A stretch of 64,000 nucleotides of DNA, from positions 32,001-96,000 of IMG/VR virus record IMGVR_UViG_3300021426_000063; one strand, given 5' to 3'. Of the stretch, positions 2,007 to 64,000 are shown piece by piece (within the stretch, counting starts at the first letter, position 1; each line of letters opens with the position of its first letter). This DNA is from a virus (taxonomy: Duplodnaviria; Caudoviricetes). Under the pieces are notes generated by a model. The model was not told the DNA's origin, did no database searches, and worked only from the letters and a program-made list of their open reading frames with translations. The translations under genes were made by a program, and so were the position numbers.

Positions 2007-2039
2007 AAAAAAAGATGAGGAACTATGCCTCATCTTTTT
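2007..2039 (-). terminator. intrinsic terminator
   Basis: aaaaagatgagg-aactatg-cctcatcttttt inverted repeat at the end of the 1927-aa gene. Confidence 0.7.
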
Positions 2040-5000
2040 ACTTTTTTATACAACCAATATCTAAATGAATCATCTCCCCCATCTTCTTCATACCTTTCAT
2101 ACCATTTAGGATATGCATTTATCAACTCATCTTCATCATACTTTTCATCTTCTGGAATTTCAGGATTTGGGTCTAACCTCCTTGGGTCCAGGTCATAGAT
2201 ACTCTTTGGAAGGGATTCTGAACTGGATGGAGAGGAGTCTGGTTCAACAATCTCTTCCTCCTTCACCTTTGAGAAATCAATCTCCTTTCCATCATAACCA
2301 AGGATATCATCAGTTGTCTTTGGTTGAATATTTTCTCTTACAAATTTCCTGATGTCTTCAGGAACATTGTATTTATCAAAGAGACCTTCATCAATCTCAT
2401 CTATCTTATCAGAGTTCCAAAAGTCTTCTGAATAGTCTTGTATGGGAACAGAAACCCAATATTGTTTTAAATTATCTCGAGAATATTTTTTGTTAATTAA
2501 AAGTGCTCTTGCAAATTTACTTATACAATATTTTGCATGTTTTTTTGCTTCTTCAAAATCTTTACAATATCCAGATTCAAGATAGTTATCTGTACATATA
2601 TCATTTGGACCAACTATTATAATATCACCATATGTGCCTCCTAAATATTTTTTGTCAAAACCACCCCATGTCTTTGGTAATAAAATTTTCCATACACCTT
2701 TATGACAATCTATATGTGGTTTTGGTAAAGGATAATTTTTATCAACATATTTTATTGTTCTTAATCCATCCAATATACCAAAAATTTTTATATCATCATC
2801 ATTCTCTTTTTTGTCTTTAAATGTATTTGGTAAACCATATTTTTCTGGACTCTTGAAGAAATTTGTTTGTAAATTATAAGGTACTCTATTAGTAATAACT
2901 GTATCCATACCTGTACAATCTCCAACACAATCAACAAGTTTTTTAATTTCTTCTGGTTTTATAATATCATCATTTTTAATTGGTAATTTAATCTCTTTTG
3001 GATTTTTACCATCAGTATACACCAATTGTTTTCCTTCAAGTCCATTATCATATCCTTTTTTCCAATAAATAATATTTGTTTTTTTAGCACCTGTAACACC
3101 TTTAAATCCATCAAAAATATTATTAATTGAAATGATTTGTTTATCATATTTTACATCAGGTGTATTCATCAAACTTAAACCATTACCAGACTTTATATCC
3201 TGCCATCCAACCGGAAATATCATACTCATCTGGTCACAATTCTGTTTAGCCCAAATATAGAATTGTGGATATATTTGTTTTTTACCATTATTATATGGTG
3301 GATTCCCAACTATTACTGACCAGCGCATATTGTTACTTTCTATTATTTTTCCCCATTTTCTCTTAATTGATCTATCAAGACCATCTATCATTGACATATC
3401 TACTTCATCTGAATCTCCTTCATCATATTCATCATAATCTTCTTCATTCTCCTCATTTATCTTATGAATGAATGAATCAAATGTGTCAAGATTGATATAT
3501 CTGTTTTCATCCACTGGTGATGGTCCATCTATCAAATTACCATTCTCATCAACATTATAATCTGTTGTATCCTTCTCTCCATCATCACCAAGGACATTAT
3601 ATACAAGAATATGTTCATCCAACCACTGACGCCTCTCACTTATACTCTTACCCAATTGTTCAAGTAACATAGATAGAGTCTTCTTGTTAAGTGCTGCTAT
3701 CTTATCTGTTCTACACACAAGATAATAGTTATCAATATTAGCACTTGATAGATTATCTTCATTTGTATCACTAAATAGATAGTGAGCAATTTCTCCTATC
3801 TTACTTCCATAGAAGTCAAGAATAGTCATATCTTTATTAAATATAACAAAATCTCCATTACCATCCATAAACAGTTTCTTACAAATACCTCCATCTATTT
3901 TATCACCTGTTTTATATGGTGTAATGACTTCTGTATTACCCAATCTATCATAGAAGTCTTGTAGAGTTATTCTCATTTGCTCATAATCAGAATAATTACT
4001 CTTAAACAATGTCTGTGCTGAAACAATAATCTCCTTCAACTCTCCTTCTCTACCAAGTGGAACAATGATATCATTATACCAGGTCTGTAATTTGCCCTTA
4101 ATTCTTTTTGCTGTATATATATCATATGCCAATTGCTTATCCGGGTCATTCGAATGTCTCCACTTAATTCCAAGGTCATCTGCAAAGATGGCTGCTGTTA
4201 TAGATGCATTTGATGGATGGTCTTTGTGATACAGGTCATCCCAAACTCTGTTAATCTTATACACCTTCTCCTTATCCTTTGTGAACTTCAACAACATAAA
4301 GAGCAAAATGTCTCTGATGATAGTCTCATTCATCTGTGCCAAACTGTTGAGTTCATCTGCATATGTACCTTCATATTCATGTGTAGACATCTCCCTGGTA
4401 ATCTTTTTACCATCCTTACCTTTCATTTCTGGTGCCTCACCTTTGGCATGTGTACCAGGACCCTCCATAGCTGCTGTTGATTTTAATGGTGCAAATCTCT
4501 TTGACTTCTTAATAGTCTTCATCCAATCACCAGGTTTAACTCCTTCAACCCCCCAGTCATATGTTCTCTTCAACAATGTACTTACAGGTGTGTGTTTTCT
4601 ATAATCATCAATAATCTCTATCATTGATGTAGATTTACACCTTTCAAGTTTATTGTCTTTGAATATAAGATATGGCATACAATCCATCTCTTCCTCATAT
4701 TTCCTCTCTATTAAATCATCAGTATCATCCTTCTTTGCATCTTCACCTCTTGAATCATCACCATTCCTGGCCTCTGCCTCATACCTCTGCCTCATCATAT
4801 CCAATATTCTATATGGTGAGAAATCAACAAACAAAGTCTGTGGTTTCATATCAATCTTTGTTGGTGTTCCCAACTTAATATTACCTTCATCATCCAACTC
4901 TACTGTCTCTACCTCCTTGACATAAGGACTCATAATTCTGAATTTTGCCTGGTCATACTCCTGTGGAGACTTACAGTCCTTCATATAGAACATAGTATCC

Positions 5001-7813
5001 CAAGGTTCAACAGTAACACCTGTCAACATCTTGACCACAGTCAATGTAATAGTCTTGTTGCCTGCTTCTGCATACTCTCTAATCTGTTTCTTTGCCCATT
5101 CTGTACTTACAGGTTCAATCTTACTTGCTGCCTTTACAATCATATACTTTTTCAGATTAGGAAAATCTTTTATTGGAGCATCATTAATCATCTTCTCCAA
5201 GGCATCACAGCAGATTCTGTTTGGTAACACAATCACAATATGCTTACACATATTACCTTTCTTGATTTCAGGAAGGTTAATAAGTGACATCACACCGGTT
5301 TCCTTCACACCAGTACCTCCATCGAGAAGCTGGAACAACTTCTTGATGGCTTCTTTATATTTAAATACAGGTGTATCCTTATCTTTTGTCTCAAACAACT
5401 TACCAAATGTGAATTTGGTCTTCTTCTTCATATAAGTATCAAGTCTGAATTCCTCTAACTTATATCCATACTGTAACATCTGAGGAATACCAAAGTATGG
5501 ATTATCCTCCCAGTGTTTCTCCTTACCATTATCATTATATGGATCACCTGGAATGTCAACCTTACTATGTGACAAGATAAATGGTGCATGGTCTTCTGCC
5601 CACTTTTTCTTTGCACCAATCAATTCCTTGAATGAGAACTTTGCAATAATGTCCTTCTCTTTGAATTTACTTCCAAGCATCAGTTTATATGGTGTTCCTG
5701 AAAGATACAGTCTGATTGCATTCTTCAAATTCAACATTCTTTCTGCTGCATCCTCTGTCTCCTGGTCTCCACCATCATCTCCATCTTCTTCATCATCTGG
5801 AACATAATCTTCATCAGGAGTATATGCCTCATTGACTTTCTGCTCACCCGTTGCCTTACCAAGTTTCTGACCTTCAACAGCAAAGTGTGCCTCATCAAAG
5901 ATAATCAAATCAACAGGACACTCAAAGAAACTGATATGCCTATCCTTTACTTCTGCCTTGACCAATTCTCCATCCTTGTGTCTGTCATTAACATCACCAT
6001 TCAAGTCTTGTAATGAGACAAATATCACAATCTTCTTATCCTTATGTAACTGTAAATACTTTTCAAGAGATGGTGTCAATTTAACCTTTGGTTTTCCATC
6101 CTTATCCAATACTGGTTTTCCTTCCAAATCAACTTCTGGTTCTTTATCACACCAGTCTTCCTTCTTCATTTTGACTGTACCATCTGGATTAAGTTCATTA
6201 TTGTTCAACAGCCAACTGATACCCTGTTCTGTATCAGATGCATCATACATATCATAACCTTTGAAGTCACTATATGGATTGATTGTTTTGATCCATTCAT
6301 TCTTTACATCAACCTTTGCAGATGCAACAACTGTAAGTCCAGAAACATGTTCTGTATGATGTTTATAGAAATTCTTCATACACTCAAATGCTGTGTATGT
6401 CTTACCAAATCTCATAACAGCATACATAAGTAACTTCTTTCCACCAAGACCAACTCTCTCCTCAAACTTATCAACAGTCTCCTGCTGAAGTCCCCTCAAA
6501 GTATATTTCCTGGTTTCATTATGTGTAGGAGGAATAATATCATCATTCCTGGTATTTGTATATTCCTTTAATTTAGAAAGAATAGACTGTCTTCCTGCAA
6601 TTGCCTTTTCTTTTAATACTTCTATGGCCAATTCAACATCATCTGGTGTACAATTTTCAAAGAACTCCTTTGAATATTTCTTTGCCTGATAATCACTGTC
6701 TCTGAATTCATCTTCCGGAATAATCCTTCTGATGTCTTTATTATCATTCAATTTCTTAATATCTTCACCAACAAGGATATTATGGATTGTATAATCCCTG
6801 AACATCTTACCTTTCAATCCTTCACCACAGGATTTTGGTAATATTGCACTCCACTCCCAGGATTTCTCATGAATGACCATACCTTCTTCCTTACCAAACA
6901 CATCCTTCCATTCAGTTATTCTCTTTGCCACACCTCTGTTAGTATCTCCAACCTTTAATGGATGAATATCCCTTCCTGTTTTCTCCTTAATACTCTCATC
7001 AGCATAGTTTGAATAGAAAGCATATATTTTAGGTGTTGTAACACCCTTAATTAAATCACCCTCAACAGTGACATCACTCATCATATCTGACTCATCAAGT
7101 TCAACACCTGTGACACCACCACCTTTAACATCATCAATATTATTAAGATGGTCACCACTATTGGTAAATACAATTGACAACTGTCTCTCTGTCTTATCTG
7201 GGAATCTATACACCTTTGATGTTTTATCAGATGGGAATAAATCTGCCTTTGCTATATGAAGATGTCTTGATTTATATAGGATTTTATCAAACTGATTTGA
7301 CACATTACTTTCATCAAATGTGTAATACCTTGACTGACCCTTTGTATAGACAAATTCACCAGAAATATATGGGTAGTTAAATATGTATAAGTTCAAATCT
7401 GCAATAACACCATATGTGTAAGGTGGTTCAATTTTCAATGATATGTTATAGATATAATCAATTACACCTTTTATGTTCCACCCATCAAATATTTCCTGGA
7501 TTTGAGTTTTTGTTGAATCTGAAATCCCATCCTTTTCTTCACTTGGTGTGACTTCTACATACTGATAATTGTCTTTATGAATAGTTTCTGTGTCATCAAA
7601 ATAGATACACCACACTTTCATATCAAAATCTCTTTCCAATCTTTGAGCAAAAGGAACATCATTGATGACCAAACAGTTCAAACCACTATCAGCATCTTTT
7701 GATAGTGCTGTTCTACTTATCAGCTTATTATAAAACTTATCTTGATTTTCAATTTTGATTTTCTTGGTTATACTCTCATTCAAGAAATCTTCAAAACTTT
7801 TTAGATTCAACAT
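2030..7813 (-). CDS. Fused restriction-modification enzyme: GIY-YIG/T5orf172-like nuclease + SF2 helicase + N6-adenine MTase (Eco57I-like) + TRD, with capsid-targeting-like N-terminus
   Basis: KIYAF...LKVGDTNR..KRI (GIY-YIG-like); LRGLQ, MRFGKT, IFDEAH, LSGTPY, MLTGV (SF2 helicase); VIVGNPPY (MTase motif IV); N-terminus MLNLKSFEDFLNES. Confidence 0.85.
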   Translation of the reverse strand: MLNLKSFEDFLNESITKKIKIENQDKFYNKLISRTALSKDADSGLNCLVINDVPFAQRLERDFDMKVWCIYFDDTETIHKDNYQYVEVTPSEEKDGISDSTKTQIQEIFDGWNIKGVIDYIYNISLKIEPPYTYGVIADLNLYIFNYPYISGEFVYTKGQSRYYTFDESNVSNQFDKILYKSRHLHIAKADLFPSDKTSKVYRFPDKTERQLSIVFTNSGDHLNNIDDVKGGGVTGVELDESDMMSDVTVEGDLIKGVTTPKIYAFYSNYADESIKEKTGRDIHPLKVGDTNRGVAKRITEWKDVFGKEEGMVIHEKSWEWSAILPKSCGEGLKGKMFRDYTIHNILVGEDIKKLNDNKDIRRIIPEDEFRDSDYQAKKYSKEFFENCTPDDVELAIEVLKEKAIAGRQSILSKLKEYTNTRNDDIIPPTHNETRKYTLRGLQQETVDKFEERVGLGGKKLLMYAVMRFGKTYTAFECMKNFYKHHTEHVSGLTVVASAKVDVKNEWIKTINPYSDFKGYDMYDASDTEQGISWLLNNNELNPDGTVKMKKEDWCDKEPEVDLEGKPVLDKDGKPKVKLTPSLEKYLQLHKDKKIVIFVSLQDLNGDVNDRHKDGELVKAEVKDRHISFFECPVDLIIFDEAHFAVEGQKLGKATGEQKVNEAYTPDEDYVPDDEEDGDDGGDQETEDAAERMLNLKNAIRLYLSGTPYKLMLGSKFKEKDIIAKFSFKELIGAKKKWAEDHAPFILSHSKVDIPGDPYNDNGKEKHWEDNPYFGIPQMLQYGYKLEEFRLDTYMKKKTKFTFGKLFETKDKDTPVFKYKEAIKKLFQLLDGGTGVKETGVMSLINLPEIKKGNMCKHIVIVLPNRICCDALEKMINDAPIKDFPNLKKYMIVKAASKIEPVSTEWAKKQIREYAEAGNKTITLTVVKMLTGVTVEPWDTMFYMKDCKSPQEYDQAKFRIMSPYVKEVETVELDDEGNIKLGTPTKIDMKPQTLFVDFSPYRILDMMRQRYEAEARNGDDSRGEDAKKDDTDDLIERKYEEEMDCMPYLIFKDNKLERCKSTSMIEIIDDYRKHTPVSTLLKRTYDWGVEGVKPGDWMKTIKKSKRFAPLKSTAAMEGPGTHAKGEAPEMKGKDGKKITREMSTHEYEGTYADELNSLAQMNETIIRDILLFMLLKFTKDKEKVYKINRVWDDLYHKDHPSNASITAAIFADDLGIKWRHSNDPDKQLAYDIYTAKRIKGKLQTWYNDIIVPLGREGELKEIIVSAQTLFKSNYSDYEQMRITLQDFYDRLGNTEVITPYKTGDKIDGGICKKLFMDGNGDFVIFNKDMTILDFYGSKIGEIAHYLFSDTNEDNLSSANIDNYYLVCRTDKIAALNKKTLSMLLEQLGKSISERRQWLDEHILVYNVLGDDGEKDTTDYNVDENGNLIDGPSPVDENRYINLDTFDSFIHKINEENEEDYDEYDEGDSDEVDMSMIDGLDRSIKRKWGKIIESNNMRWSVIVGNPPYNNGKKQIYPQFYIWAKQNCDQMSMIFPVGWQDIKSGNGLSLMNTPDVKYDKQIISINNIFDGFKGVTGAKKTNIIYWKKGYDNGLEGKQLVYTDGKNPKEIKLPIKNDDIIKPEEIKKLVDCVGDCTGMDTVITNRVPYNLQTNFFKSPEKYGLPNTFKDKKENDDDIKIFGILDGLRTIKYVDKNYPLPKPHIDCHKGVWKILLPKTWGGFDKKYLGGTYGDIIIVGPNDICTDNYLESGYCKDFEEAKKHAKYCISKFARALLINKKYSRDNLKQYWVSVPIQDYSEDFWNSDKIDEIDEGLFDKYNVPEDIRKFVRENIQPKTTDDILGYDGKEIDFSKVKEEEIVEPDSSPSSSESLPKSIYDLDPRRLDPNPEIPEDEKYDEDELINAYPKWYERYEEDGGDDSFRYWLYKKVKR

Positions 7814-7844: not shown

Positions 7845-7852
7845 TATTTATG
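7845..7852 (-). promoter_or_regulatory. phage late promoter CATAAATA
   Basis: T4-late-like octamer about 30 nt upstream of the RM fusion; the same octamer precedes the capsid, portal, sheath and tube genes. Confidence 0.7.
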
Positions 7853-7860
7853 GGGTATGA

Positions 7861-7888
7861 AAAAAGTGAGGAACTTTCCTCACTTTTT
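7861..7888 (-). terminator. intrinsic terminator
   Basis: aaaaagtgaggaa-ct-ttcctcacttttt inverted repeat. Confidence 0.7.
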
Positions 7889-7891: not shown

Positions 7892-8518
7892 CTAATCCAT
7901 AGGATGTGACCTTGAGAATTCAGGTATCCAACTCTTCGCATATTTCTCAATACCTTCCTGTCTAATAAAGTTTTCATATCTTTCCCTTCTAAACTGTGTC
8001 CTTTTGACATCATCATTTTTATCAGGATAAACTTTATGAGCAAGTTCAGTATATTTAATCCATTTTTCCATACACCTGTTATAGTTATAAGTTTTCCATT
8101 GATTTCTCTGCAATTCTCTTAAATATGATTTATAGTCATATAACCCCTTCTGTCTTTTTAGAATACTTTTAAATGTTGATAAAAGAAGTCTATCTTTTTC
8201 TGCAACTGTCAAACCCTGCAAACCATCATCTTCACCTTTCTTTACCCATTTTACCAATGACTGCCAAACCTCATTATATTTGTTTCCTTCAATTTGAGCC
8301 TTCTCATATGGATTGAAAGAATTTGTTGATATATTTGTATTAACAAATGATTTATCTTCCTTGTGTTTATATATTGCAGCAGCCAGATATGGGTCTGTTT
8401 TTGGGTCTCCTGTAAATTCTTCTGGCATATTACTTGGAACAACTTCTGGAAAATCGGGTTGTTCAACTTCTTCATAAATGAATCTTTCATTTATAAATTC
8501 TTCAAATTTAAGTACCAT
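7892..8518 (-). CDS. hypothetical protein, putative internal head protein
   Basis: N-terminus MVLKFEEFINE; own late promoter at 8541-8548. Confidence 0.75.
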   Translation of the reverse strand: MVLKFEEFINERFIYEEVEQPDFPEVVPSNMPEEFTGDPKTDPYLAAAIYKHKEDKSFVNTNISTNSFNPYEKAQIEGNKYNEVWQSLVKWVKKGEDDGLQGLTVAEKDRLLLSTFKSILKRQKGLYDYKSYLRELQRNQWKTYNYNRCMEKWIKYTELAHKVYPDKNDDVKRTQFRRERYENFIRQEGIEKYAKSWIPEFSRSHPMD

Positions 8519-8540: not shown

Positions 8541-8548
8541 TATTTATG
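8541..8548 (-). promoter_or_regulatory. phage late promoter CATAAATA
   Basis: Octamer 22 nt upstream of ATG 8518. Confidence 0.7.
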
Positions 8549-8573
8549 AAAAGAGTGAGGACTAATCCTCACT

Positions 8574-8702
8574 CTATCTATACTTTGGAGAAAGATTCCC
8601 CTTATATGTCATTATCCCGGCAGATTTCAGGAACTTCATTGCTTCTTCCTTTGACGAAGTCACTTTCTTCGCAGCTTTCTTCAATAGTTTTTCACTCTTC
8701 AT
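8574..8702 (-). CDS. small basic hypothetical protein (42 aa)
   Basis: Manual ORF MKSEKLLKKAAKKVTSSKEEAMKFLKSAGIMTYKGNLSPKYR; ATG 1 nt after the upstream stop (TAGTATG coupling); ends at a hairpin at 8552-8575. Confidence 0.6.
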   Translation of the reverse strand: MKSEKLLKKAAKKVTSSKEEAMKFLKSAGIMTYKGNLSPKYR

Positions 8703-11876: not shown

Positions 11877-12593
11877 CTATAACTTAATTTCATCTATTTT
11901 CTCAATCCATTCAGGTCTTATATTATCCATAGTAAAATATGAATCAAACCCTCTTGCATTTGGGTCTTTATAAAGTTTTATATTCTCAACTTTATTGAAA
12001 TCAATCCTGTAAACAGAGTATTCTTTAATCCTCTTTTTATTTAAAAGTGATTTATCAATTTCTTTTTTAAAAACTTGATTCATCATTTTATAGAAAATAG
12101 GTTCATATAATTTTATACATATCCTGTGCAAGAATTCTAAATCACCATTAGACAATAGATAAATTCTATCTGGATATTTGAATCTATAATTTCTACTTCT
12201 TGGTATCAAACCCATTGTCTGAATTTTCTTATCATTGATAGATGGTGTCAGATGATAAAAATATTGTATTTCACCAGATTGTTTTAATTTATCAAATATA
12301 TTTTCTTCATATATCTTCTCATATGTGTAATAATCATCAATATTTTCATCTGCTTGATAATATCCACCAAGTTTCAATACACTTTCAACATCATCAAACA
12401 AATTTTCATCTAATTTCTTACTCACAAGAATATATTCACCATCATCTATATATAATTCAACAGAATCATCATCAAGATTATACTTCTTTTGTATGTATCT
12501 TACAACCTTGTCTGCTGGATATGTCATCAGGAGACCCTCATTCAATGATGTCTCCTGAACAAACTCATCAAAATCCAATACATTCTTTACCAT
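11877..12593 (-). CDS. putative ADP-ribosyltransferase-fold protein with capsid-targeting-like N-terminus
   Basis: YFYHLTP...IQTMGLIPR...DRIYL...YRID...DP...YFT..NI.P resembles the Tpt1/ART NAD-binding lobe; N-terminus VLDFDEFVQETSLNEG. Confidence 0.55.
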   Translation of the reverse strand: MVKNVLDFDEFVQETSLNEGLLMTYPADKVVRYIQKKYNLDDDSVELYIDDGEYILVSKKLDENLFDDVESVLKLGGYYQADENIDDYYTYEKIYEENIFDKLKQSGEIQYFYHLTPSINDKKIQTMGLIPRSRNYRFKYPDRIYLLSNGDLEFLHRICIKLYEPIFYKMMNQVFKKEIDKSLLNKKRIKEYSVYRIDFNKVENIKLYKDPNARGFDSYFTMDNIRPEWIEKIDEIKL

Positions 12594-15414: not shown

Positions 15415-15673
15415 ATTCTTCTTTATCCATTAACATTCTCACAACATCTCTCCACCATTCATAATATTGCTTATTTTCATAACTCATATCATCCATATAA
15501 GTATTCCAAGCAATATAACACATATCCCTTGCTTCATCCAATTCTGTTTTGTCTTCTGTCAATAATCTGATATATTCTGCATATTCCTCCTTATTCAAAA
15601 ACAATGGAAAAAAGATTCTCTTATACCATTTAAGACCTTTCTTGAATGATATATATTCTAAATAGGTTGCCAT
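15383..15673 (-). CDS. hypothetical protein
   Basis: Overlaps both neighbours in operon. Confidence 0.6.
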   Translation of the reverse strand: MATYLEYISFKKGLKWYKRIFFPLFLNKEEYAEYIRLLTEDKTELDEARDMCYIAWNTYMDDMSYENKQYYEWWRDVVRMLMDKEEYEANHTGRDN

Positions 15674-18018: not shown

Positions 18019-18138
18019 AATTAACACCTTAAATATAACAAAAATAATTTATGGCCCATTTGTATATTATTAAAAAAATAAAGAACATAAAACAATTTAT
18101 TTGTTATTTTTATTTCATAACCATTTTATTCATGCCAT

Positions 18139-19280: not shown

Positions 19281-20840
19281 ATGAGCACATTAACAACTAA
19301 CATAATAAGGAATGTGTATAATATGGGTACTGGCGCTTGCGATGCTGGTACACAATATTGTACAGATGGTTATTCCCTCTACTTTCCTTGTCTGAAGGAC
19401 ATTACAAAAGGTCAAGGTGTGTGTTTTGACTTCTATGTTGCTGACAACACAACACATGAACCAATTGATTTAAGAAGAGTGGATGCCATCTCATTGAATC
19501 TCAATGGACAGTATAATTGTAATTATGGTACATTCTCTTATCCAGACAACATCTCATCTCTCCAGACAGAAAAGTATCCTGTTGTGTACAGAAATGATTT
19601 TGGTGAAAGGAAACCTTGTCATTTGAGTCTCTTTATGATTGATATTGAAAATAATGATGAATCAGAGACTTATAACACCCAGGAAGGTGATTTCTATTCT
19701 GGAACAGAGGTTGAACTTGGTGCATTTGACACACCAACACATATCTTCTTGGGATGGGCATTAATGAATATGGATGAAGATGATGATTGCCCGGGAGAGA
19801 GTTGGTATGACCAAATCATCAGTACATCCAATATCTACAAATTCACAATCAAGGAAGACACCATCATATTGGCACTTTACAGACCAAGGAGAAAGTATAA
19901 TGTAATATCTGACCCAACTAATAAGTCATCTCATTTTAATGTTGATTATGACCATATTGTCTATCACATTTCCAACAGGGATGAAGAGATTTTCAATGAT
20001 GACTATGATGTACTTGAAGGTGTATTGGAAGGATACAGTATGGTTATCAAGTGTATTCCAAGTACAGATGTGATTGGTGACAGTGTTGATTTCACCTATG
20101 ATTTTGTTGAATGGAAAGACAAGAACACATCCAGATGTAGATTATTGAAGATTGGTTCAGATACACTTCCATTTGAAGATGGAAACATCATAAAACTCAA
20201 AGCAAGATGTGATGGACCTGTACCTTACCATAATATTGAGGATGTTGATATATTCTATAATGATGAGTTTGATGAAGAAGGTATCCATATCCTTACTGAA
20301 CCATCAGAGGTTGATATCTTTGATTTCTATGGTGATGGTGTCCACATCAAAGAGTCAGAAGAGGTTTATCAGAAGTTCATAGATGAAACAGGTTATCTAT
20401 ACTTCCACTTTGGAACACTTGTACTCTCATCAGAAGGAATTGAAGATGGTATCAAGATTATTCTCCATGCAAAGGCAGATGATTACTGTGAATTCAATAT
20501 AACTGTAAATGGTTATACAATGAACCAGGTCATCTCAACAGATGAGTTCAAACAGTATGAGTTCTACTATAACAAATGTGAGAAATCAGACATCACAATA
20601 ACTGTATATGGTGAATGTCTTGTTGATATGATAGAAGTATGTAGAGAAGAGATTATTGATAAAGGAAAAGCACAGTTCTGTCTTGACCCAGAAACAACTA
20701 TCAATCTCCCATCTGGAAAAATATCTGTAGATGGTGCCATTTCAGTTGATGGTAGTTATTATGGTCTTCCATCAACAGAGATTGGTCAGGTGAACAGATT
20801 ACCAAAGATAATTATAAAAACAGATCCAATATATGAATAA
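19281..20840 (+). CDS. late (probably virion) protein with InlB-B-repeat-like beta domains
   Basis: Late promoter; F.GW...YKFTI.ED..I.A.Y and YDFVEW.D repeats; acidic and beta-rich. Confidence 0.55.
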   Translation: MSTLTTNIIRNVYNMGTGACDAGTQYCTDGYSLYFPCLKDITKGQGVCFDFYVADNTTHEPIDLRRVDAISLNLNGQYNCNYGTFSYPDNISSLQTEKYPVVYRNDFGERKPCHLSLFMIDIENNDESETYNTQEGDFYSGTEVELGAFDTPTHIFLGWALMNMDEDDDCPGESWYDQIISTSNIYKFTIKEDTIILALYRPRRKYNVISDPTNKSSHFNVDYDHIVYHISNRDEEIFNDDYDVLEGVLEGYSMVIKCIPSTDVIGDSVDFTYDFVEWKDKNTSRCRLLKIGSDTLPFEDGNIIKLKARCDGPVPYHNIEDVDIFYNDEFDEEGIHILTEPSEVDIFDFYGDGVHIKESEEVYQKFIDETGYLYFHFGTLVLSSEGIEDGIKIILHAKADDYCEFNITVNGYTMNQVISTDEFKQYEFYYNKCEKSDITITVYGECLVDMIEVCREEIIDKGKAQFCLDPETTINLPSGKISVDGAISVDGSYYGLPSTEIGQVNRLPKIIIKTDPIYE

Positions 20841-37726: not shown

Positions 37727-37815
37727 ACTCTTATAGATATAGTATATAGTATTTATGAGAAACAAAAAAGAGAGGGTAGTTTCCTACTCTCTCTTTTATT
37801 ATTGTTTGTGATTGA

Positions 37816-46316: not shown

Positions 46317-46401
46317 AAAACTGTAAATAAATAATATATTGTATTTATGAAACAAAAAGGAAGTGGATAACCACTTCCTTTCAATTTATATTTAAATTCT
46401 A

Positions 46402-49200: not shown

Positions 49201-51192
49201 TTATTTTCTTGATAATTCTCTTCTAAGTTTCTTCTTCCAGAATTCACGACCTTCTGCACCATTCAATACATCATGGAACATACTCAATGTACGCCAGTTG
49301 ATTGACTGGTAGTTTGGATCAGCCAAGAGTTTTTCAACTTCCTCAATGAACTCTTCAACCATATCCCTTGGAATAGCACACTTATCATCTGGAATTGACT
49401 TATCTGCATATTCAGACAAAATCTTCTTCTTCATAACAGTCCAGATAGATTCTGCAAGAGGTGCAATATCATAGTTCTCAAAACGAGATGAAATAGCATC
49501 CCAGTTACCCTTACCCACTTCATTAACAAATACATCTCTTTCAGAATTGGAAATGATAATTACAACACCTCTGAATATGAACTCATTAGGCATTGCAGGT
49601 TGAGTATTTTCCTCTTCATCCTTCCAAGAGTCATCAATCTTTTGCATCCACAAATCAATCATCTCCTGGTCAGCATCCTCCTTACTTGCTACACCACCAG
49701 GTGCAGTTGGACTATAATAAAGACTATATTTCTTCATCTCTTTCTTATAGAAATCAGTCTTATCATCAGCAGACTTACGACCAATCTCTGTGAAGTACTG
49801 TTTCTGTCTGTCACCTTTAAGTCTTCTTACATTGTAAACCTTCAACTTTGACTCCTTACCAGGGAAACCAATCAAACAGTCTTCAATATCAGTCTGGAGA
49901 GCATTCTTCCACATAGAGATACGGTAATCACCATCAAAGAGGTTAGGTGAATCATCAAACACCAACATCTTACCATTATACTCATACATCAACTGATATA
50001 CAGAATCAGCGGTTGAACAACCAGAACCAGCCCAAACATAGTCCCTATTCAACACCATATTTTTCTCTTTAAGGATTTTCTTAAGTGTATGGGTCTTACC
50101 AATACCACCCTTACCAGTGAGGAGAACACCACGCCTTGACATAATTGATGTATCATTCTTATCAAGGACACCATTCTGATGAACATAATTACACATAGCA
50201 CTTATAACCAACTCCAATTCAGTAATAGTTGATTCATAGTTCTCTGTATCCTCCTCAATCTTGGCCTTCATTGCATCCTCTCTGGCCTTCATTCTCTTCT
50301 CGAGTTCTGCCTCTGCATCTGATACCTCATATGCAACACCAGCAGATGTTGAAATAGCTGGGCCTTCACCACTATAAGATTTAACAAGATTATCAAATAC
50401 ACCAGCATCAACAGCTTTCTGTACAGAACCTGGTACTCTACCACCAGATGCCAATGTCATAACACTATTGGCACAATCCATCATATATCTTGTCTGACCA
50501 TCTCTGGTTGCCAATGGACCACCAACAAATGCTTTAAGAATCCTTGTAGCCATAGGATCATTATCCTGTATTAACAAGAAATACTGTTCAACAGCATTCT
50601 TTAAACCATAATCACGGATAAATCCATATACATACTGTCTGTCATCATCTGACATCTTTTCAAAATTCCTTACATTCTTCTCAACATAACCAGCGCCAAT
50701 TCTACCAGCAAATGCCTCATCAATAGGTTCTGTGTTCTGTAAATCATAAACCAACTGATCAAGCATATCCTTGAAACCAAGTTTCTTTGTTGAATAGGTA
50801 ACTATTGCAACATTTTCCTTACCAACCTCAAAATCATCAAATATTGAAATTGATTTCTCATTTGTATCACGACAACATACAATATTTTTATGTCCACCCT
50901 TTTCAAAGAATCTTACACCTGGGACACCATTCAAATAAACAATATTATATCCAATACCAAAATCACCAATATTCTTCAATCTCTTTGAAACAATATTGGA
51001 AATTTTCAAAAGATATTTGTCTTCATAAACAGGTGTACCTATGATAACTTCTTCCTCAGGAAAATTTGGATCAATCTCTGGAATCTCCATTGTTTGCTTT
51101 TCAGGTTCCAATGCTACTTCAGTTGATTCTTTCAATGCCTTTTTCTTTTCAATAAATTCTTTGGCATCAAAATTTTTGAACTTATTTATCAT
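49201..51192 (-). CDS. AAA+-type P-loop ATPase
   Basis: LTGKGGIGKT (Walker A), LVFDD (Walker B), IIISN, AISSR; late promoter at 51223-51230. Confidence 0.8.
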   Translation of the reverse strand: MINKFKNFDAKEFIEKKKALKESTEVALEPEKQTMEIPEIDPNFPEEEVIIGTPVYEDKYLLKISNIVSKRLKNIGDFGIGYNIVYLNGVPGVRFFEKGGHKNIVCCRDTNEKSISIFDDFEVGKENVAIVTYSTKKLGFKDMLDQLVYDLQNTEPIDEAFAGRIGAGYVEKNVRNFEKMSDDDRQYVYGFIRDYGLKNAVEQYFLLIQDNDPMATRILKAFVGGPLATRDGQTRYMMDCANSVMTLASGGRVPGSVQKAVDAGVFDNLVKSYSGEGPAISTSAGVAYEVSDAEAELEKRMKAREDAMKAKIEEDTENYESTITELELVISAMCNYVHQNGVLDKNDTSIMSRRGVLLTGKGGIGKTHTLKKILKEKNMVLNRDYVWAGSGCSTADSVYQLMYEYNGKMLVFDDSPNLFDGDYRISMWKNALQTDIEDCLIGFPGKESKLKVYNVRRLKGDRQKQYFTEIGRKSADDKTDFYKKEMKKYSLYYSPTAPGGVASKEDADQEMIDLWMQKIDDSWKDEEENTQPAMPNEFIFRGVVIIISNSERDVFVNEVGKGNWDAISSRFENYDIAPLAESIWTVMKKKILSEYADKSIPDDKCAIPRDMVEEFIEEVEKLLADPNYQSINWRTLSMFHDVLNGAEGREFWKKKLRRELSRK

Positions 51193-51222: not shown

Positions 51223-51230
51223 TATTTATG
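51223..51230 (-). promoter_or_regulatory. phage late promoter CATAAATA
   Basis: Heads the AAA/AAA/peptidase/vWA cluster; a second copy lies at 46342-46349. Confidence 0.7.
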
Positions 51231-55819: not shown

Positions 55820-55827
55820 CATAAATA
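55820..55827 (+). promoter_or_regulatory. phage late promoter CATAAATA
   Basis: 28 nt upstream of ATG 55856. Confidence 0.7.
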
Positions 55828-55855: not shown

Positions 55856-58800
55856 ATGCTTTTAGGATTTAAAGATTATCAATCTTATAGTATTGATTTT
55901 AATGAATTAGGACAGATTAATGAATCACATCAGTATTCTGATGCAATCAGTTCTGTTATGGATAAACTCACTTTCTATGTAAAAAGGAGTGTTGCTCTTG
56001 AAAACAGCAGTCTCAATGAGTCTGCAAAGAGAGCATATAGTAAGGACATCAGGTTCAACAGGGATGAGAGAATTGCTGCTGCTTGCATCTTCAATGAGAT
56101 GCTTAAACAGTATGAAGAGAATATGAAAGAAGAATTATCTTTGTGTGAAACAATCCTCAATCAGGAATCAGTTCTTGAAGAAGGTGTTGAGTATGATGAA
56201 AAGACTCTTTCAGAAATTCTTTCTCTCAATGAAGAAATCAAGATTTTCCACAAGTTGAAGAATGTAACAAAAACTGTCATTGATGGTGCAAAGGAACTCA
56301 CAGTAAAAGGTGTTGAGGTTGTAAAGGCAAAGAAAGAAGATCTTGTTGCATGGGCAAAAGAAGCAAAGAAAGATTTTGAAGAAAAGTATGAAACTCTTAA
56401 AAAACTCATCAAAGAGATTGTTGATAAGGGTGTTGATACAATTGAAAAATTCATCAATAAGATTCTTGAAGTGTTCACATCAATTGGTGATGACCTTGTT
56501 GATGCTGTTAAGAAACTTGGCGGTCTCAAAATGGAAGATGGTGAGAAACCAGCAACCATTGATCTTGAAGATACAGATGAATTATACAAAGATAAAAATG
56601 ATGAAGAAAAATCTTTCATCAACAATATTATATTAAGAGTTCAGGCAATCCTTTCAGAAGATAAGGAGAATGCAGTAAAATTGATGACAGAATCATATGT
56701 TGCTGAATCTATTGTTGATAACAAATTCATTGCCTGGTTGTCAGGTTACAAGTCTGACGGTACAAAGATGAGTTGGTGGAAATGTATTCTCATCGGTCTT
56801 TGTGCATCACTCATTGTATGGTTACTTCCAAAGGTACTTGTAGTTGCTGGTCTTGGTGGTGCTCTTGCAGCATTCATTGCTGCTCTTGTAGGTGTTACCT
56901 GGAATGGTATTGGTATGCTTAAACTCATATACAGGAGAAACAAAGAAAGAAAACCTGGTGAGAAATTCTTCAACAGAAAGACTTCTATCTTCTTTGCACT
57001 CTCATTGTTCTCAATGATATTCAGTGTTGCTACATTCATCAAGACTATTGGTCCTCTTTTGAGAGAAATCTGCAACACTATGGAATGGACTGGTGGTGAT
57101 GATATGAACAAGTTTGGTGAATTTATTTATGGTATCACAAAGAAAGTAAGTCCAAAGGATGCTTTTGTTGATGGTGGATACAAAGAGATTTCAGAAGAGA
57201 TTCAGAACTTTGGAGGTGATTTCAGAGGAAATGATCTTCTTAAATCAAAAGAAGATGTTCTTAATGCAGTAAAGGAAATGCCTGGTGCAACAGAAGCAAA
57301 TGTAAATGCTCTTGACAAGTTCCTTTCTGCACCTATTGATGCAAAGGGTACATCTGCTGTATATGATGCATTGTCACAGTTTAAAGATAATGCAGACCTT
57401 CCATTTGTTGCAGTATTTGATACATCAAAATGGGGTGGTACTGGTCCTATCAGAGATGCTATCAAGGCATTGAAAGACCAACTTCCTGATTCTGCAATCC
57501 TTGGTACTGTTGGATCAGAAGCAACAAAGAAAGCATCAAAGGGATTGTATGGTTTTGCAACCTATCTTACTGGTGTAAACCAGGAACAAGCAAATATGAT
57601 TTTTCAGAAAGCTGCTGAACTTGCCGGTAAAGATGTAGCATCTCTTCAACTCCATACTTATGGTACTGGTTCAATTGCTGATGTAATCACAACAGTTGAA
57701 CCAATCAAGGGTATGTTTGATGTACTTACTCCTAATGTTCCTTTCCTTCCTATGGTTATGCCATTCTTTGATGAGAAGAAATGGGGTGAATACAAAATTA
57801 GGTTTGCATCTGCAACAAGAGGTGCCGCTGCTTATGTGGTTGACAGAGTTGAGATGCTTCCTTCTGACAAGATTGAGGGTTCAAGTAAAGCATTTGATAC
57901 ATTAAAAACTATTCATAATGGTGCCTGGAAAGAATTCCAGTCATTAGAAATTGAAGACAAAAAGGATATTGAAGAACCTCAATATATTGTATTCTTCATA
58001 AAACCAGATGAAGAAACTGGTAATGAAAATGATAAACCCAAAGAAGGTAACAATGAAGAAAACAAGAAAGATGTTGTTGGTGTTGTAATTGATACACTCA
58101 CAATGATGTGTGCTGATGTATGTAACTTCAATGAATCAGTAAAGGTGAGAAGAAGACCACAACCATACTTTATGAAGGGTCTCCTTTCAAGACTTTCATT
58201 CAGACCATTGAAGGACAATGATAATGATACAAAGGATTACATCAGAACAACACTTGGTCAGACAATGAAGACTCTTGCTACACAGAATGTACTTTATGGT
58301 GTTGGCAAGAAATACATTGACTCAAAAGTTGAAGATAAGAAAGCATCCTATTCTATAAGAGCAACTGTTCTTGGTGATGATAAGAAAAAGGTATCTCCAA
58401 AGAAGACAATGTTTGAACTTGGTAACTTCTCTCCAGAAGAACTTATTAACATCCTTTCAGATGAAAGTAAGAACAATAAAATCGCTTATGACTTCCTTGA
58501 TGGTTCATTTGCTTCAAAGGTATCTATCAAGACAGATGGTAATGGTGACATCACTTCAAAAACAGTCTTGAAAGATGAATCTACTATTGAGAATGTAAAG
58601 TATTATAGAGTATCAAAAGATAAATATCAGGAGATAATGGATGAATATGAGAAAGAATTGAAGAAGTTTAAAGATGGTAAGTTAGATAAGAAACCTAATA
58701 AACCTTCATTTATAAAAGGTGAAGACAAAGAATACTATAAAAGAGCATCAAAGAAATTTATGCAGGAGAATAAAAGAAAAAGAACTTATGACTTTGTTGA

Positions 58801-59332
58801 CATCAGAATTGTTCCACTCTTGAAGAAAGGTGAACTCTATAAGAAACTTATTGAGAATGATAAATTCAAGAAACTCATTTATAAAGAGGATGAGGAAAAC
58901 AATGTAAAACTCAATAAGGAAGTAATCAAGGTTCTCAAACCATTCCTCTTCAGACCTGAAAAGACATTTGCAAAGGATGATGAATATCAACTTACACAAC
59001 TCTTGAAAGAACAGGGTGTAGAAGGTGAACATCTTGGATGGTTCAAGAATCTCTTCAAAGATGAAGAACAACTCAATGATACTTTCAAGGATCTCGTAGA
59101 GGTAATCTGGGATTACTTATCAGAAAACAGAAGAAAGGTATTCAAGGGTAGAGACCTTACACCAAATCATAAAACAAATGAAGATGTTGAATACACTTTA
59201 TTTGATGAGTTAATTGAAGAGTTCTTCAATGATGAATATGATGAGGAAACTGAATATGAGTATGATATGGAAATACTCAATGAAGAACAGGATGTTCTTT
59301 CATTCGAAGACTTCTTAATTGAAAGATATTAA
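55856..59332 (+). CDS. large late membrane protein, putative ejection/internal head protein
   Basis: Late promoter; several INES/LNES/LNEE sites; 2-3 TM helices (ILIGLCASLIVWLL, VVAGLGGALAAFIAALVG, IFFALSLFSMIFSV); C-terminal VLSFEDFLIE. Confidence 0.7.
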   Translation: MLLGFKDYQSYSIDFNELGQINESHQYSDAISSVMDKLTFYVKRSVALENSSLNESAKRAYSKDIRFNRDERIAAACIFNEMLKQYEENMKEELSLCETILNQESVLEEGVEYDEKTLSEILSLNEEIKIFHKLKNVTKTVIDGAKELTVKGVEVVKAKKEDLVAWAKEAKKDFEEKYETLKKLIKEIVDKGVDTIEKFINKILEVFTSIGDDLVDAVKKLGGLKMEDGEKPATIDLEDTDELYKDKNDEEKSFINNIILRVQAILSEDKENAVKLMTESYVAESIVDNKFIAWLSGYKSDGTKMSWWKCILIGLCASLIVWLLPKVLVVAGLGGALAAFIAALVGVTWNGIGMLKLIYRRNKERKPGEKFFNRKTSIFFALSLFSMIFSVATFIKTIGPLLREICNTMEWTGGDDMNKFGEFIYGITKKVSPKDAFVDGGYKEISEEIQNFGGDFRGNDLLKSKEDVLNAVKEMPGATEANVNALDKFLSAPIDAKGTSAVYDALSQFKDNADLPFVAVFDTSKWGGTGPIRDAIKALKDQLPDSAILGTVGSEATKKASKGLYGFATYLTGVNQEQANMIFQKAAELAGKDVASLQLHTYGTGSIADVITTVEPIKGMFDVLTPNVPFLPMVMPFFDEKKWGEYKIRFASATRGAAAYVVDRVEMLPSDKIEGSSKAFDTLKTIHNGAWKEFQSLEIEDKKDIEEPQYIVFFIKPDEETGNENDKPKEGNNEENKKDVVGVVIDTLTMMCADVCNFNESVKVRRRPQPYFMKGLLSRLSFRPLKDNDNDTKDYIRTTLGQTMKTLATQNVLYGVGKKYIDSKVEDKKASYSIRATVLGDDKKKVSPKKTMFELGNFSPEELINILSDESKNNKIAYDFLDGSFASKVSIKTDGNGDITSKTVLKDESTIENVKYYRVSKDKYQEIMDEYEKELKKFKDGKLDKKPNKPSFIKGEDKEYYKRASKKFMQENKRKRTYDFVDIRIVPLLKKGELYKKLIENDKFKKLIYKEDEENNVKLNKEVIKVLKPFLFRPEKTFAKDDEYQLTQLLKEQGVEGEHLGWFKNLFKDEEQLNDTFKDLVEVIWDYLSENRRKVFKGRDLTPNHKTNEDVEYTLFDELIEEFFNDEYDEETEYEYDMEILNEEQDVLSFEDFLIERY

Positions 59333-60002: not shown

Positions 60003-60698
60003 TTAACTTTTTTGTATAGATTCTATAATATAATCCACTTTAAATGTATCCCCTAGAGTTCCATCTTCTTTTATTTCATACAGATAAGTACCCCAATTAT
60101 CTACATCATCTTCATTATCATACTCATATCCAAGACATAACTTACCATTTAATGGTGGAGTTTTAGCATATTGGCATAATGGATACCATCTGTCAAGAAG
60201 TGGTGTTTTATCTTGTTCTGATTTACAAAGATTATACTCACCATCTTCATTCTTTATCAACCAAACATTCTTAAACAACTGTTTCTCAACAGTAATCTTA
60301 TTCAACTTTTCAAGTTCTGATTTCTTCAAACCAGTTTCCCTATCATAATCTTTCAATACAGACTTGAATGGATCCTTGATAGCACTGCACCAACGTTCCC
60401 AAGGAATATTATTAATCATTTTTGGGTCACCATTCTTATAGAAATCATCAATAGCAATTTCCCTTATCCTGTCAAGTACTTCCGGGTCAACTTTCTTGTT
60501 CCAATCATCACTATGACCATGTTTAAGATGACCATTGGCACTTCTGTCTTTATATATAAATGTGACATTATCACCACCATTACTATGGCGATATGTCCAT
60601 CCAAATTGTTTTAATGTTTTCCATACATCACCAAATGAAGCAGAACTATATACTTCATTTATCTGTACATATTCTTCAAATTTTAACACTTTACTCAT
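60003..60698 (-). CDS. putative internal head protein with HicA-like N-terminal domain
   Basis: MSKVLKFEEYVQINE; VWKTLKQFGWTYRHSNGGDNVTF...H.KH is weakly HicA-like; late promoter at 60704-60711. Confidence 0.55.
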   Translation of the reverse strand: MSKVLKFEEYVQINEVYSSASFGDVWKTLKQFGWTYRHSNGGDNVTFIYKDRSANGHLKHGHSDDWNKKVDPEVLDRIREIAIDDFYKNGDPKMINNIPWERWCSAIKDPFKSVLKDYDRETGLKKSELEKLNKITVEKQLFKNVWLIKNEDGEYNLCKSEQDKTPLLDRWYPLCQYAKTPPLNGKLCLGYEYDNEDDVDNWGTYLYEIKEDGTLGDTFKVDYIIESIQKS

Positions 60699-60711
60699 AT
60701 GAATATTTATG

Positions 60712-60741
60712 AAAAAATCCAGGATTAATCCTGGATTTTTC
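60712..60741 (-). terminator. intrinsic terminator after uvsX
   Basis: aaaaaatccaggattaatcctggattttt palindrome. Confidence 0.75.
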
Positions 60742-60743
60742 TT

Positions 60744-62007: not shown

Positions 62008-62556
62008 TTACTCACTCTCCTTCTTTGCTTTCTTTTTCTTTTTAATCTCTTTCTTATCAGTAAGTTTGAATTCCTTACTTGGGTCAACCACAACCTTAGC
62101 TCTGGACATAAAATCCTTACAGAGTAACATCCTACTCCTGTAAGTCTTTGTACCAGACAAATCAGAAATCTTCAAGTCAACAAGTTCATCCTTGTATTCC
62201 TTACCATTGAATTTGATGTCAACCTTGATAACAGGTCTTTCAGTTGCCTTTCCATGATGCCAGATTTTGATATGTTTTACAATATCATATTCTTTCTTCT
62301 CACCATTGAACTCAAATGAGACCTTGCCATCTTTCTCTTCAAAATCCTGAACAATAATGGCATTGTATGCTGTGTTACCAGTATCAAGTTTTGCTTTCAT
62401 CTTTCCAAGACCAATGACCTCAATCATTTCCTTGAATCCAGATACTTCCTTACCATCATGTGTTTCCTTTGTTTCTGAATGGACAGGAGTCTCTGGTATG
62501 AAAGCTTCTTCCTTCATACCTCTGTTCTTTATGAATTCTTCAAATTTCTGTAACAT
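62008..62556 (-). CDS. RimK-associated retropepsin-like protease (RimB/'ATP-dependent Zn protease' family)
   Basis: KAKLDTGN, ERPVI, MLL..DFM...VVDPS; N-terminus MLQKFEEFIK. Confidence 0.8.
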   Translation of the reverse strand: MLQKFEEFIKNRGMKEEAFIPETPVHSETKETHDGKEVSGFKEMIEVIGLGKMKAKLDTGNTAYNAIIVQDFEEKDGKVSFEFNGEKKEYDIVKHIKIWHHGKATERPVIKVDIKFNGKEYKDELVDLKISDLSGTKTYRSRMLLCKDFMSRAKVVVDPSKEFKLTDKKEIKKKKKAKKESE

Positions 62557-62557
62557 A

Positions 62558-62722
62558 TTAGTTAATTTCTTTAAATCCTAATTCATCTTTTGTTGATGTA
62601 ATCTTTCCATCAGCACTTTCCTCCCAGAGTTTTTTTACCTCTGCAACTTTCTGTTTAAACTCCCTTCTTAATTTCTGTTTCACTGTCAAGGTAGTTTTAT
62701 CATGTGAACAATTACATCCCAT
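62558..62722 (-). CDS. small hypothetical protein (54 aa, MGCNC N-terminus)
   Basis: Manual ORF that fills the gap between the RimK and protease genes. Confidence 0.55.
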   Translation of the reverse strand: MGCNCSHDKTTLTVKQKLRREFKQKVAEVKKLWEESADGKITSTKDELGFKEIN

Positions 62723-62730
62723 AATTTATA

Positions 62731-64000
62731 TTAGTCAACATTCTTATACTTTGATAAGTCAACCTCATGTCCATAGAATGCCTCAATCACACCAGCAACC
62801 TTACAAGCATCCTCAAATGGGATAACATCATTGCTGAAATAAGCATAATTCTCTTTACATTCTATGAGTTCATTACCATTGTAACTCAATGTCCAGGTAT
62901 CCTTACCTTCATCAAGACCTTCAATCTTCCAGTTGTCATTCTCATATACTGACTGTTTACCCTGGATGTATCTTGTGATGAGTTTCTTCAAACCACAAAG
63001 TCTGATGTTCTCACCTTCTTCAATAGTATTACTCTCATTAATCATAACACTCTCATCAACCTTCTCTACAGGAACATCAAAATTTGTTGTATTATCTGTA
63101 AGGATGAATGATCCTTCAACAACAACTGCCTTATCAGAAATCCTGTGAAGGAATTTACTACCACCAATTGCAATGTTGATATTAATATTGTCATTGACAG
63201 TCTTCAAAACAACAAGTTCATTCTTGTAGATTGTACCATTGAACCTGATGTTCATCTCTATCATAGGATCTCCCTTTCTCATACCAGAGAGTTCCATCTT
63301 ATAAGTAACACCATTGAATACAAATGATACATCATCATCCTTTGCATTGACTGAACTACACTGGAGTTCTGTGAATGTCTTATTGTCATCAAACTTCATA
63401 GCAGCATCAACACCATCACCCAAATCCTTGAAAGTGACTGTCTCATACTTACCAATCTGGTCTGAATCATACTTGGTGTACTTGAAGTCCTTGAACATAT
63501 CCATCAATGTACCAACTACATCATCGCCGGCAGCAGTGGTGATACCCTTTGTACCTGGTGATGAGTTAACCTCAATAACATAAGACTGCTTGGTCCTGGA
63601 ATCCATAATGAGGTCAACACCAGCCCATCTACAACCTGTGGCCTTTGCTGCCATCTTTGCAATCTTCTCCTGTTCAGATGTAAGGTGACCCTTCTCTGCT
63701 GTTGAACCAAGTGAATAATTACTTCTGAAATCACCAGCAAGCTGATTCCTCTGCATACAACCAATAATCTCAAAGTTCTCAATACCTGGAGTCATTCTTT
63801 CAAATCCCTTATAGAGAACATGTACACGGAGGTCATAATCTGAATTGATCTTCTCTTGAAGAAGAATATCTGCCTTTGGTACAAGAGCAAAAATGGCCTG
63901 AAGAACAGATTTCAATGAAATCATCGAATCAATCTGAGCAACACCAATACCCTGTGTACCCTTTGTAATCTTAATGATAAGAGGGAAACCACCACCAACA
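62731..64000 (-). CDS. rimK: RimK-family ATP-grasp ligase fused to a degenerate RimB-like domain; 5' end outside window
   Basis: Frame open to the window edge: FPLIIK..GTQGIGV, LLQE, DLRV, DFRSNYSLG, AGVDL, IEVNSSPG; then IG.YE.V...AAMKFDDN...PMI...IGG..FL. Confidence 0.85.
   Translation of the reverse strand, partial: VGGGFPLIIKITKGTQGIGVAQIDSMISLKSVLQAIFALVPKADILLQEKINSDYDLRVHVLYKGFERMTPGIENFEIIGCMQRNQLAGDFRSNYSLGSTAEKGHLTSEQEKIAKMAAKATGCRWAGVDLIMDSRTKQSYVIEVNSSPGTKGITTAAGDDVVGTLMDMFKDFKYTKYDSDQIGKYETVTFKDLGDGVDAAMKFDDNKTFTELQCSSVNAKDDDVSFVFNGVTYKMELSGMRKGDPMIEMNIRFNGTIYKNELVVLKTVNDNININIAIGGSKFLHRISDKAVVVEGSFILTDNTTNFDVPVEKVDESVMINESNTIEEGENIRLCGLKKLITRYIQGKQSVYENDNWKIEGLDEGKDTWTLSYNGNELIECKENYAYFSNDVIPFEDACKVAGVIEAFYGHEVDLSKYKNVD

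Follow-up and report, generated by a model that had tools for sequence, protein, structure and literature searches.

A leader resembling the T4 capsid-targeting sequence, with a candidate prohead-protease site, on many proteins of an uncultured jumbo phage

In T-even phages, the internal proteins form a diverse set with only a short capsid-targeting sequence (CTS) in common (PMC3012670). In T4 this sequence reads MKTYQEFIAE and is removed by the protease gp21 (Mullaney and Black 1996, as cited in PMC9958956, PMC8442874 and PMC3012670); the ten residues of IPII and IPIII are cut off once and can bring foreign proteins into T4 heads (PMC8442874, PMC9958956). Comparable routes are described elsewhere: phage P1 packages DarB, a 250-kDa methyltransferase-helicase, through its N-terminal 30 residues (PMC9024508), and a protease related to gp21 cuts many of the head proteins of phiKZ, 201phi2-1 and SPN3US after a Glu, their propeptides being thought to target them into the prohead (PMC5694885). 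Here we analyse a two-part leader that recurs on many proteins of an uncultured phage of the Caudoviricetes, starting from a stretch of 64,000 nucleotides (the window), bases 32001–96000 of the single 233,103-bp contig IMGVR_UViG_3300021426_000063 (35% GC). Coordinates are those of the window unless given as genome positions, and predicted cuts are marked by an arrow (↓).

On our best reading, the first element of the leader is a short acidic amphipathic helix with two aromatics three residues apart, Phi-K-x-[FY]-[EDN]-[ED]-[FY]-Phi, and the second a predicted prohead-protease site, Phi-N/x-E before S, G or A, that follows at once or after a variable spacer. We think it probable, at about 65%, that this leader is a propeptide of the T4 type, which targets its carriers to the capsid and is then cleaved off by the prohead protease, targeting and processing being taken jointly. 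The likeness to T4 is close: both signals lie at the N-terminus after Met, share the register x-K-x-[FY]-x-E-F-Phi-x-E and end at Glu; both sit on unrelated, fast-changing carriers; and both phages have the same head machinery of gp23, gp20, gp21 and scaffold. In the T4 genome (NC_000866), IPII and IPIII begin with MKTYQEFIAE and IPI with MKTFKEFTST, in the same register as MVLKFEEFINE here, and a regular expression derived from the window found exactly two proteins, IPII and IPIII, among 150 T4 open reading frames (ORFs; six frames, at least 50 amino acids, 60 kb). A position-weight matrix built from 12 leaders also ranked the T4 internal proteins best at N-termini, but gave few bits under harsh pseudocounts, and the regular expression was used instead. 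The differences from T4 concern the number of carriers, about 16–21 candidates here against three to four; their size, as T4's are small basic proteins and those here large enzymes of up to 1927 amino acids (aa); the cut site, here often at a variable distance from the helix and with a strong preference for Asn at P2; complete units that are also internal and C-terminal; and a scaffold fused to the protease. The principle is already known from T4; what is new is how many carriers there are and how large they are, the construction in two parts with its variable spacer and P2 Asn preference, the internal and C-terminal use, and the protease–scaffold fusion with its periodic sites.

The recurrence of the leader is real and far beyond chance. 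In 227 greedily called ORFs of the whole genome (75,401 residues), the core [FY][EDNQ][ED][FY][LIVMFT], required to start within the first 20 residues, has 11 N-terminal matches; shuffles of whole proteins predict 0.58, and shuffles of residues 2–25 only, which keep the N-terminal composition, 0.48, an enrichment of about 20-fold under the two controls. Relaxed cores (RDDF, NFDAKEF, LDFGSY, LDFNNY and NYTEF) bring the total to about 16 carriers, and in the 11 strict and roughly five relaxed ones the core lies 1–6 residues after Met. Five further proteins, of 600, 748, 928, 1158 and 589 aa, have a different short N-terminal helix that ends in PhiNE↓S. The site is enriched as well: within the first 45 residues there are 38 instances of [LIVMF]NE, where 15.2 ± 4.3 are expected, and in 9 of the 11 strict carriers (L/I/V/M)NE follows the core within 30 residues, where 5% would be expected (p = 1.2e-10). 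All ten motifs quoted in an initial annotation of this DNA were recovered, positions included, and the DnaB-like helicase, RecA/UvsX-like protein, PhoH, Dam and Dcm lack the leader, as it had claimed.

Such a pattern could be a by-product of paralogy, of a DNA cassette repeated at gene starts or of an AT-rich codon bias at N-termini: with 35% GC in the genome, its proteins are rich in Lys, Phe, Glu, Asn and Ile, and the promoter and start regions are stereotyped. We give this hardly any credence, given 11 matches where 0.48 are expected. Lak-C1, at 26% GC, has no matches, so base composition is not the source of the motif. Identical leader residues are encoded by different codons in 41% of comparisons, so that selection acts on the peptide and not on a DNA cassette or repeat. 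Beyond the leader, the carrier bodies are mostly unrelated in all-against-all BLASTP, with few domain-sharing pairs, and complete copies occur at internal and C-terminal positions. Paralogy, cassette and composition were rejected on these grounds (BLASTP of the bodies, codon differences, shuffles and Lak-C1).

The leader genes are also moderately linked to a putative late-promoter motif. The T4 late promoter is TATAAATA, and the motif CATAAATA, which we take to resemble it, occurs in 62 copies genome-wide against about 31 expected, nearly always 12–70 nt before an ATG-started ORF; it precedes the genes for protease, portal, sheath, tube and many other structural proteins. It stands directly before 8 of the 15 leader genes and 46 of the 212 other ORFs (odds ratio 4.1, p = 0.01). 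The claim that most motif genes follow late promoters fits the window, with six of ten genes directly preceded and two more in late operons; genome-wide, the link is moderate. A terminator in the form of a G+C-rich hairpin and a T run lies immediately in front of many late promoters, the two elements adjoining as TTTTTCATAAATA (for example at 7852–7880, 8548–8580, 37757–37790 and 60711–60740). Just past the window end, late genes at genome positions 100130 and 103578 begin MRKISE↓SAWGDMMRRGSGE and MKKLSKIDE↓SAWGDMMRRGAGE, a second shared tag after a short Phi-x-E leader.

The largest carrier is a 1927-aa cargo candidate (2030–7813, minus strand) with a ResIII helicase and an Eco57I-type methyltransferase; its leader is MLNLKSFEDFLNE↓S (7775–7813) and a CATAAATA lies at 7845–7852. 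Next to it, a 208-aa protein (7892–8518, minus) begins MVLKFEEFINE↓R (8486–8518; CATAAATA at 8541–8548). A 238-aa protein with a Tpt1/KptA-like ADP-ribosyltransferase fold (11877–12593, minus) has the leader MVKNVLDFDEFVQETSLNE↓G (12537–12593) and no late promoter directly upstream; Foldseek gives its AlphaFold2 (AF2) model a probability of 1.0 to Tpt1/KptA, yet with template-modelling (TM) scores of only 0.3–0.43, while DarT1 and toxin ADP-ribosyltransferase folds score lower. Pfam gave no match for this protein, and H114, in YHLTP, is invariant in its family. A 431-aa protein (20833–22128, plus), for which an Atlas search gave no match, begins with ILKRDDFISE ... SINE↓G in residues 1–32 (20833–20928); its gene overlaps the end of a late gene and is thus probably part of the same operon. 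The 97-aa Gly-rich hydrophobic protein (37433–37726, minus) has the leader MIQKYEEFFSE..LDE↓S..INE↓A (37652–37726); a CATAAATA lies at 37750–37757, and the true ATG, at 37726, lies 31 nt after it. A 663-aa probable AAA ATPase (49201–51192, minus; CATAAATA at 51223–51230) begins MINKFKNFDAKEFIEKKKALKE↓S (51127–51192), a variant longer by one residue that ends in LKE↓S. Finally, a 231-aa protein (60003–60698, minus) has MSKVLKFEEYVQINE↓V (60654–60698; CATAAATA at 60704–60711), and a 182-aa PF05618 (Zn_protease) protein (62008–62556, minus) has the quoted core, MLQKFEEFIK (62527–62556), with no PhiNE site after it.

The proteins with a different helix begin with one of 600 aa (42246–44048, minus), whose N-terminal helix is ISIFEQLDTILKSVNE↓S (43998–44048) and which has one domain in common with proteins of 751 and 761 aa. 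A 748-aa DUF2201_N metallopeptidase-family protein (44070–46316, minus) has its true start at MYNQMYNRLNE↓S (46284–46316), and its CATAAATA (46342–46349) falls inside the longer ORF call. The neighbouring 928-aa protein, DUF285 plus MoxR-type AAA (46402–49188, minus), has ...WEAEFRKLLNE↓S at its N-terminus (49117–49188) and an internal leader besides. The 1158-aa protein (55856–59332, plus; CATAAATA at 55820–55827) has units at both ends, GFKDYQSY..QINE↓S (55856–55924) and ILNE↓EQDVLSFEDFLIERY (59273–59329), and a 589-aa RimK-like ATP-grasp protein, of which the C-terminal part lies in the window (62731–64000, minus), starts with MIMKYSSKGYAPLNE↓S just past the window end, behind a late promoter. 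Elsewhere in the genome, a MATCAP-family peptidase/carboxypeptidase (genome 159205–160362; leader or PhiNE↓S start) and a WYL_2 protein are also carriers. Two MoxR-type AAA proteins are encoded in the genome, each adjoining a DUF2201 metallopeptidase protein, and the 751-aa partner also has a VWA domain; both of these MoxR–vWA pairs bear leaders. The cargo list of the initial annotation is largely right as to helicase/methyltransferase, ADP-ribosyltransferase fold, AAA ATPases, peptidases and ligase; the nuclease domain it gave to the 1927-aa protein was not confirmed. PHROGs gave no match for 8 of the 10 window carriers. The window also holds a C5 cytosine methyltransferase split by an intein with a LAGLIDADG domain (15658–18027; Pfam DNA_methylase, Intein_splicing, LAGLIDADG_3).

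Complete internal units were found in four proteins, at residue 310 of the 928-aa, 490 of the 690-aa, 297 of the 751-aa and 276 of the 321-aa protein. That of the 928-aa protein, VLDFDSFVNE↓G (residues 310–319, 48232–48261), lies between the DUF285 and AAA domains, and a 730-aa paralogue of this ATPase (genome position 171494) has its N-terminus precisely where the internal leader lies, as expected if the unit marks a module boundary. In the C-terminal copy of the 1158-aa protein (motif at 59285–59329), the order is reversed, with the cut site ILNE placed before the core. Such units may be points at which two-domain proteins are split or a C-terminal tag is removed.

Conservation among orthologues singles out the same residues: the leader aromatics and NE↓G/S are among the best-conserved positions in three cargo families. 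For the 238-aa protein, 21 homologues that diverge to 29% identity all have E19 and G20 of LNE↓G, and F8 and L21 are found in at least 90% of rows, with indels in the spacer between FDEF and NEG; in the 208-aa family, A2, F5 and F8 never vary, and the stretch of 20 residues that follows the leader is hypervariable. Orthologues of the 431-aa protein keep the core and NE↓G down to 27% identity, with spacers of varying length. The aromatic pattern and NE↓S or NE↓A are likewise kept in orthologues of the 97-, 600-, 663-, 748- and 928-aa proteins, as [FY][EDN][ED][FY]...LNES in the case of the 97-aa protein and with NE↓S or NE↓A in five orthologues of the 600-aa protein; an orthologue of the 231-aa protein (in L025) begins MILKFNEYIQLNEV. 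The AF2 models of two carriers, of 238 and 208 aa, have a short low-confidence helix over the core, a disordered linker with the site and then a folded body; in the latter, the helix spans residues 5–13 before the disorder, and the predicted local distance difference test (pLDDT) of 68 is too weak for a fold search. A homologue of the 208-aa protein, P0077, begins with MLNLKSFEDFLNE, the leader of the 1927-aa protein, so leaders seem to be exchanged between genes. At L024:2299–2420 (minus), the leader MVMDFETFISEG... of a 238-aa orthologue lies in another frame and runs into stops just before the body, which has an ATG of its own; decay of the leader, a frameshift or a fault of assembly could each account for this.

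A protease of the right kind, and further sites of the same form, are encoded in the head module of the window. Besides tail sheath and tail tube, it comprises a gp23-type major capsid protein (28035–29777, minus; Pfam Gp23), a prohead protease that is S77/gp21-like at residues 1–150 (30522–32459, minus; Pfam S77, PHROG head maturation protease) and a gp20-type portal protein (32524–34242, minus), which has a late promoter and no leader. Residues 1–145 of the protease align with T4 gp21 at 25% identity (pairwise BLASTP, E = 2e-9), and its GELDHP and SSRA match GELNHP and SSRG of gp21, motifs in which the catalytic His and Ser are taken to lie. No match to the protease came from a sequence search of the PDB. 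The capsid sites ILNE↓A (residues 6–9) and SLNE↓S (49–52) and the protease sites TLNEN, RVNES, SVNEN and AVNEN are all present. In the capsid propeptide, SLNE↓S lies close to the position of the T4 gp23 boundary E65↓A66, and LNES is invariant in 17 orthologues while neighbouring residues vary. RVNE↓S lies at protease residues 172–175, directly after the catalytic domain; all relatives retain the site, with S, G or A behind the Glu, and in LR756500.1 it reads RVNE↓A. The protease continues into an extension whose C-terminal part (residues about 320–645, window 30522–31500) has about eight tandem 14-residue repeats (residues 345–455, consensus DYLAEKMNQMIxHQ), each with a Y-L-A-E that fits the L-x-E rule, and the 14-residue spacing is conserved in relatives. 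Judged by this periodicity, the extension looks like a scaffold built to be diced; the homologue in PTm1 carries the annotation 'prohead core scaffolding protein and protease'.

A sequence of events after the T4 model can be proposed. The helix would dock the cargo onto the scaffolding core, a part probably played by the C-terminal half of the protease protein with its many repeats, and the capsid shell would then close around this core. The S77 gp21-like protease would cut after the Glu of the leaders; it would also trim the capsid propeptide, free itself from the scaffold and dice the latter at the YLAE repeats. The small leaders would exit the head and the mature proteins stay inside, and at least some of them might leave with the DNA at infection.

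The genomes of relatives bear on whether the leader might serve another purpose. The nearest records in the phage collection are, by capsid identity, LR756500.1 (uncultured, 462 kb; 45%), the Lak megaphages (33%) and Tenacibaculum jumbo phages (29%), and relatives in IMG/VR, on contigs of up to 411 kb, have capsid identities of 66–97%. The full genome of LR756500.1 has 20 N-terminal matches against 1.8 expected, for example MKYIKEYEEFILE and MKFLKSYEEFLNEN. Seven adjacent genes of this genome (313382–322543, L049) begin MKYI(L/K)EYEEF..., a cluster reminiscent of the polymorphic internal-protein loci of T-even phages. One might suppose that the leader, unrelated to the capsid, marks its carriers for docking to, or modification by, another hub of the phage, such as a chaperone or the ATP-grasp/MATCAP-like peptide-modifying enzymes: shared N-terminal tags can serve a modifying enzyme, RimK, MATCAP and PF05618 proteins are encoded in the genome, and the core EE[FY] loosely recalls the tail of tubulin, on which members of the ATP-grasp and MATCAP families act. 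LR756500.1 speaks against this, as its 20 leaders occur without a RimK, MATCAP or PF05618 homologue detectable by tblastn; T4, too, uses the same motif without these enzymes. A tag of this kind would, furthermore, leave unexplained the tight coupling to a gp21-type site at the maturation points of capsid and protease, and we regard it as quite improbable.

A closer competitor to a T4-type loading of cargo accepts that the leader targets proteins to the prohead but holds that many carriers are assembly or maturation factors active within the prohead or on it, later degraded or inert, and that there is no injected arsenal. Candidates would be the MoxR–vWA–metallopeptidase pairs, the AAA ATPases and the RimK/MATCAP/PF05618 set. 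MoxR AAA+/vWA–metallopeptidase pairs of the group 2.2 jumbo phages are proposed to act in virion assembly by Iyer et al. (2021; PMC7824862); the same domain pair occurs twice in the genome studied here, with leaders in both cases, whereas the passages of that paper on these pairs do not mention a CTS-like leader or protease sites. In T4, moreover, the targeting of core proteins gp67 and gp68 ends in their destruction. The 1927-aa helicase–methyltransferase and the Tpt1-like enzyme, on the other hand, have no evident assembly role and parallel the packaged P1 DarB and T4 Alt, respectively, and the single clean leader sites are more like those of T4 internal proteins than like a diced scaffold. 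We consider it unlikely that assembly accounts for the carriers in this way, although some of them, for example the MoxR–vWA pairs, may serve it.

The parallels with the packaged enzymes have bounds of their own. Like P1 DarB, the 1927-aa protein is a very large helicase plus methyltransferase with an N-terminal signal, which in DarB directs localisation to the head, and comes from a myovirus; the parallel is one of architecture only, as tblastn of the 1927-aa protein against 50,697 phage records (E 1e-5) gave six matches, none P1-like, and no homology to DarB was found. The Dar proteins of P1 have no consensus tag, and the P1 signal is not known to be cleaved. In phiKZ-type phages, the propeptides have at least 100 residues and no common short motif, the site is A/S/G-x-E and not Phi-N-E, and the lineage is another. 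The initial annotation had seen in the carriers an unusually large injected arsenal matured by the prohead protease: the CTS likeness, the gp21-type machinery and the recurring, conserved site all stand, and an injected arsenal is plausible, though a weaker step than targeting and processing, but 'unusually large' applies in comparison with T4 only, since phiKZ or SPN3US heads hold about 50 proteins (PMC5694885).

Several observations weigh against a capsid-targeting propeptide of the T4 type, beyond the assembly role proposed for MoxR pairs. Seven of the 15 leader genes have no late promoter directly upstream, which leaves only a moderate link to late expression; the 182-aa carrier and another of 99 aa have the core without a PhiNE site; and the Phi-x-E motif is so loose that individual cut sites are guesses. 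Lak-C1 (100 kb, 26% GC, TAG = Gln) has no FEEF leaders and neither has a 25-kb stretch of PTm1; as their heads are related, the FEEF tag appears to be lineage-restricted and its T4 likeness could be convergent. The docking partner of the targeting sequence is not known even in T4 (PMC9958956). The phage is uncultured, and for its close relatives we found no proteome of the virion: when the 1927-aa and 730-aa proteins were used in tblastn, the matches were only Lak and a few gut phages, with no cultured phage that has a virion proteome among them, and the PTm1 record has no proteomics flags. Nor did the literature yield a description of this leader for rumen phages or huge phages. Compared with the FEEF helix, the NE↓S site has a wider distribution, and Lak-C1 has four N-terminal PhiNE↓S sites, one of them on an AAA homologue. 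When TAG is read as sense in Lak-C1 (1–100000, L047–L048), the coding fraction rises from 0.68 to 0.91 and the mean ORF length doubles, which fits stop-codon recoding.

Taken further, and here we remain somewhat short of even odds, the FEEF helix and the PhiNE unit may form an ancient portable address code that T4 and huge phages of 460 kb have in common, that functions at either terminus as well as between domains, and that loads a tenth of this proteome. Its cargo would, just as tentatively, include the DarB-like helicase–methyltransferase, the Tpt1-like ADP-ribosyltransferase, the two MoxR–vWA–peptidase pairs and the ATP-grasp/MATCAP/peptidase set. If this were true, the packaged or injected proteome of uncultured phages of the T4 superfamily would be predictable from sequence alone.

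If the leader works as it does in T4, it would offer a read-out, from the genome, of the proteins carried in the head of an uncultured jumbo phage, suggesting a first-strike kit in which enzymes that modify DNA and RNA stand beside ATPases and peptidases. The enigmatic MoxR–vWA pairs of T4-like jumbo phages would gain a place of action, and foreign proteins could be loaded into large capsids by means of a compact tag whose cut site is defined. It would, last, narrow the question of what binds the targeting sequence in T4, as the only scaffold-like partner here is the repeat-bearing tail of the protease.

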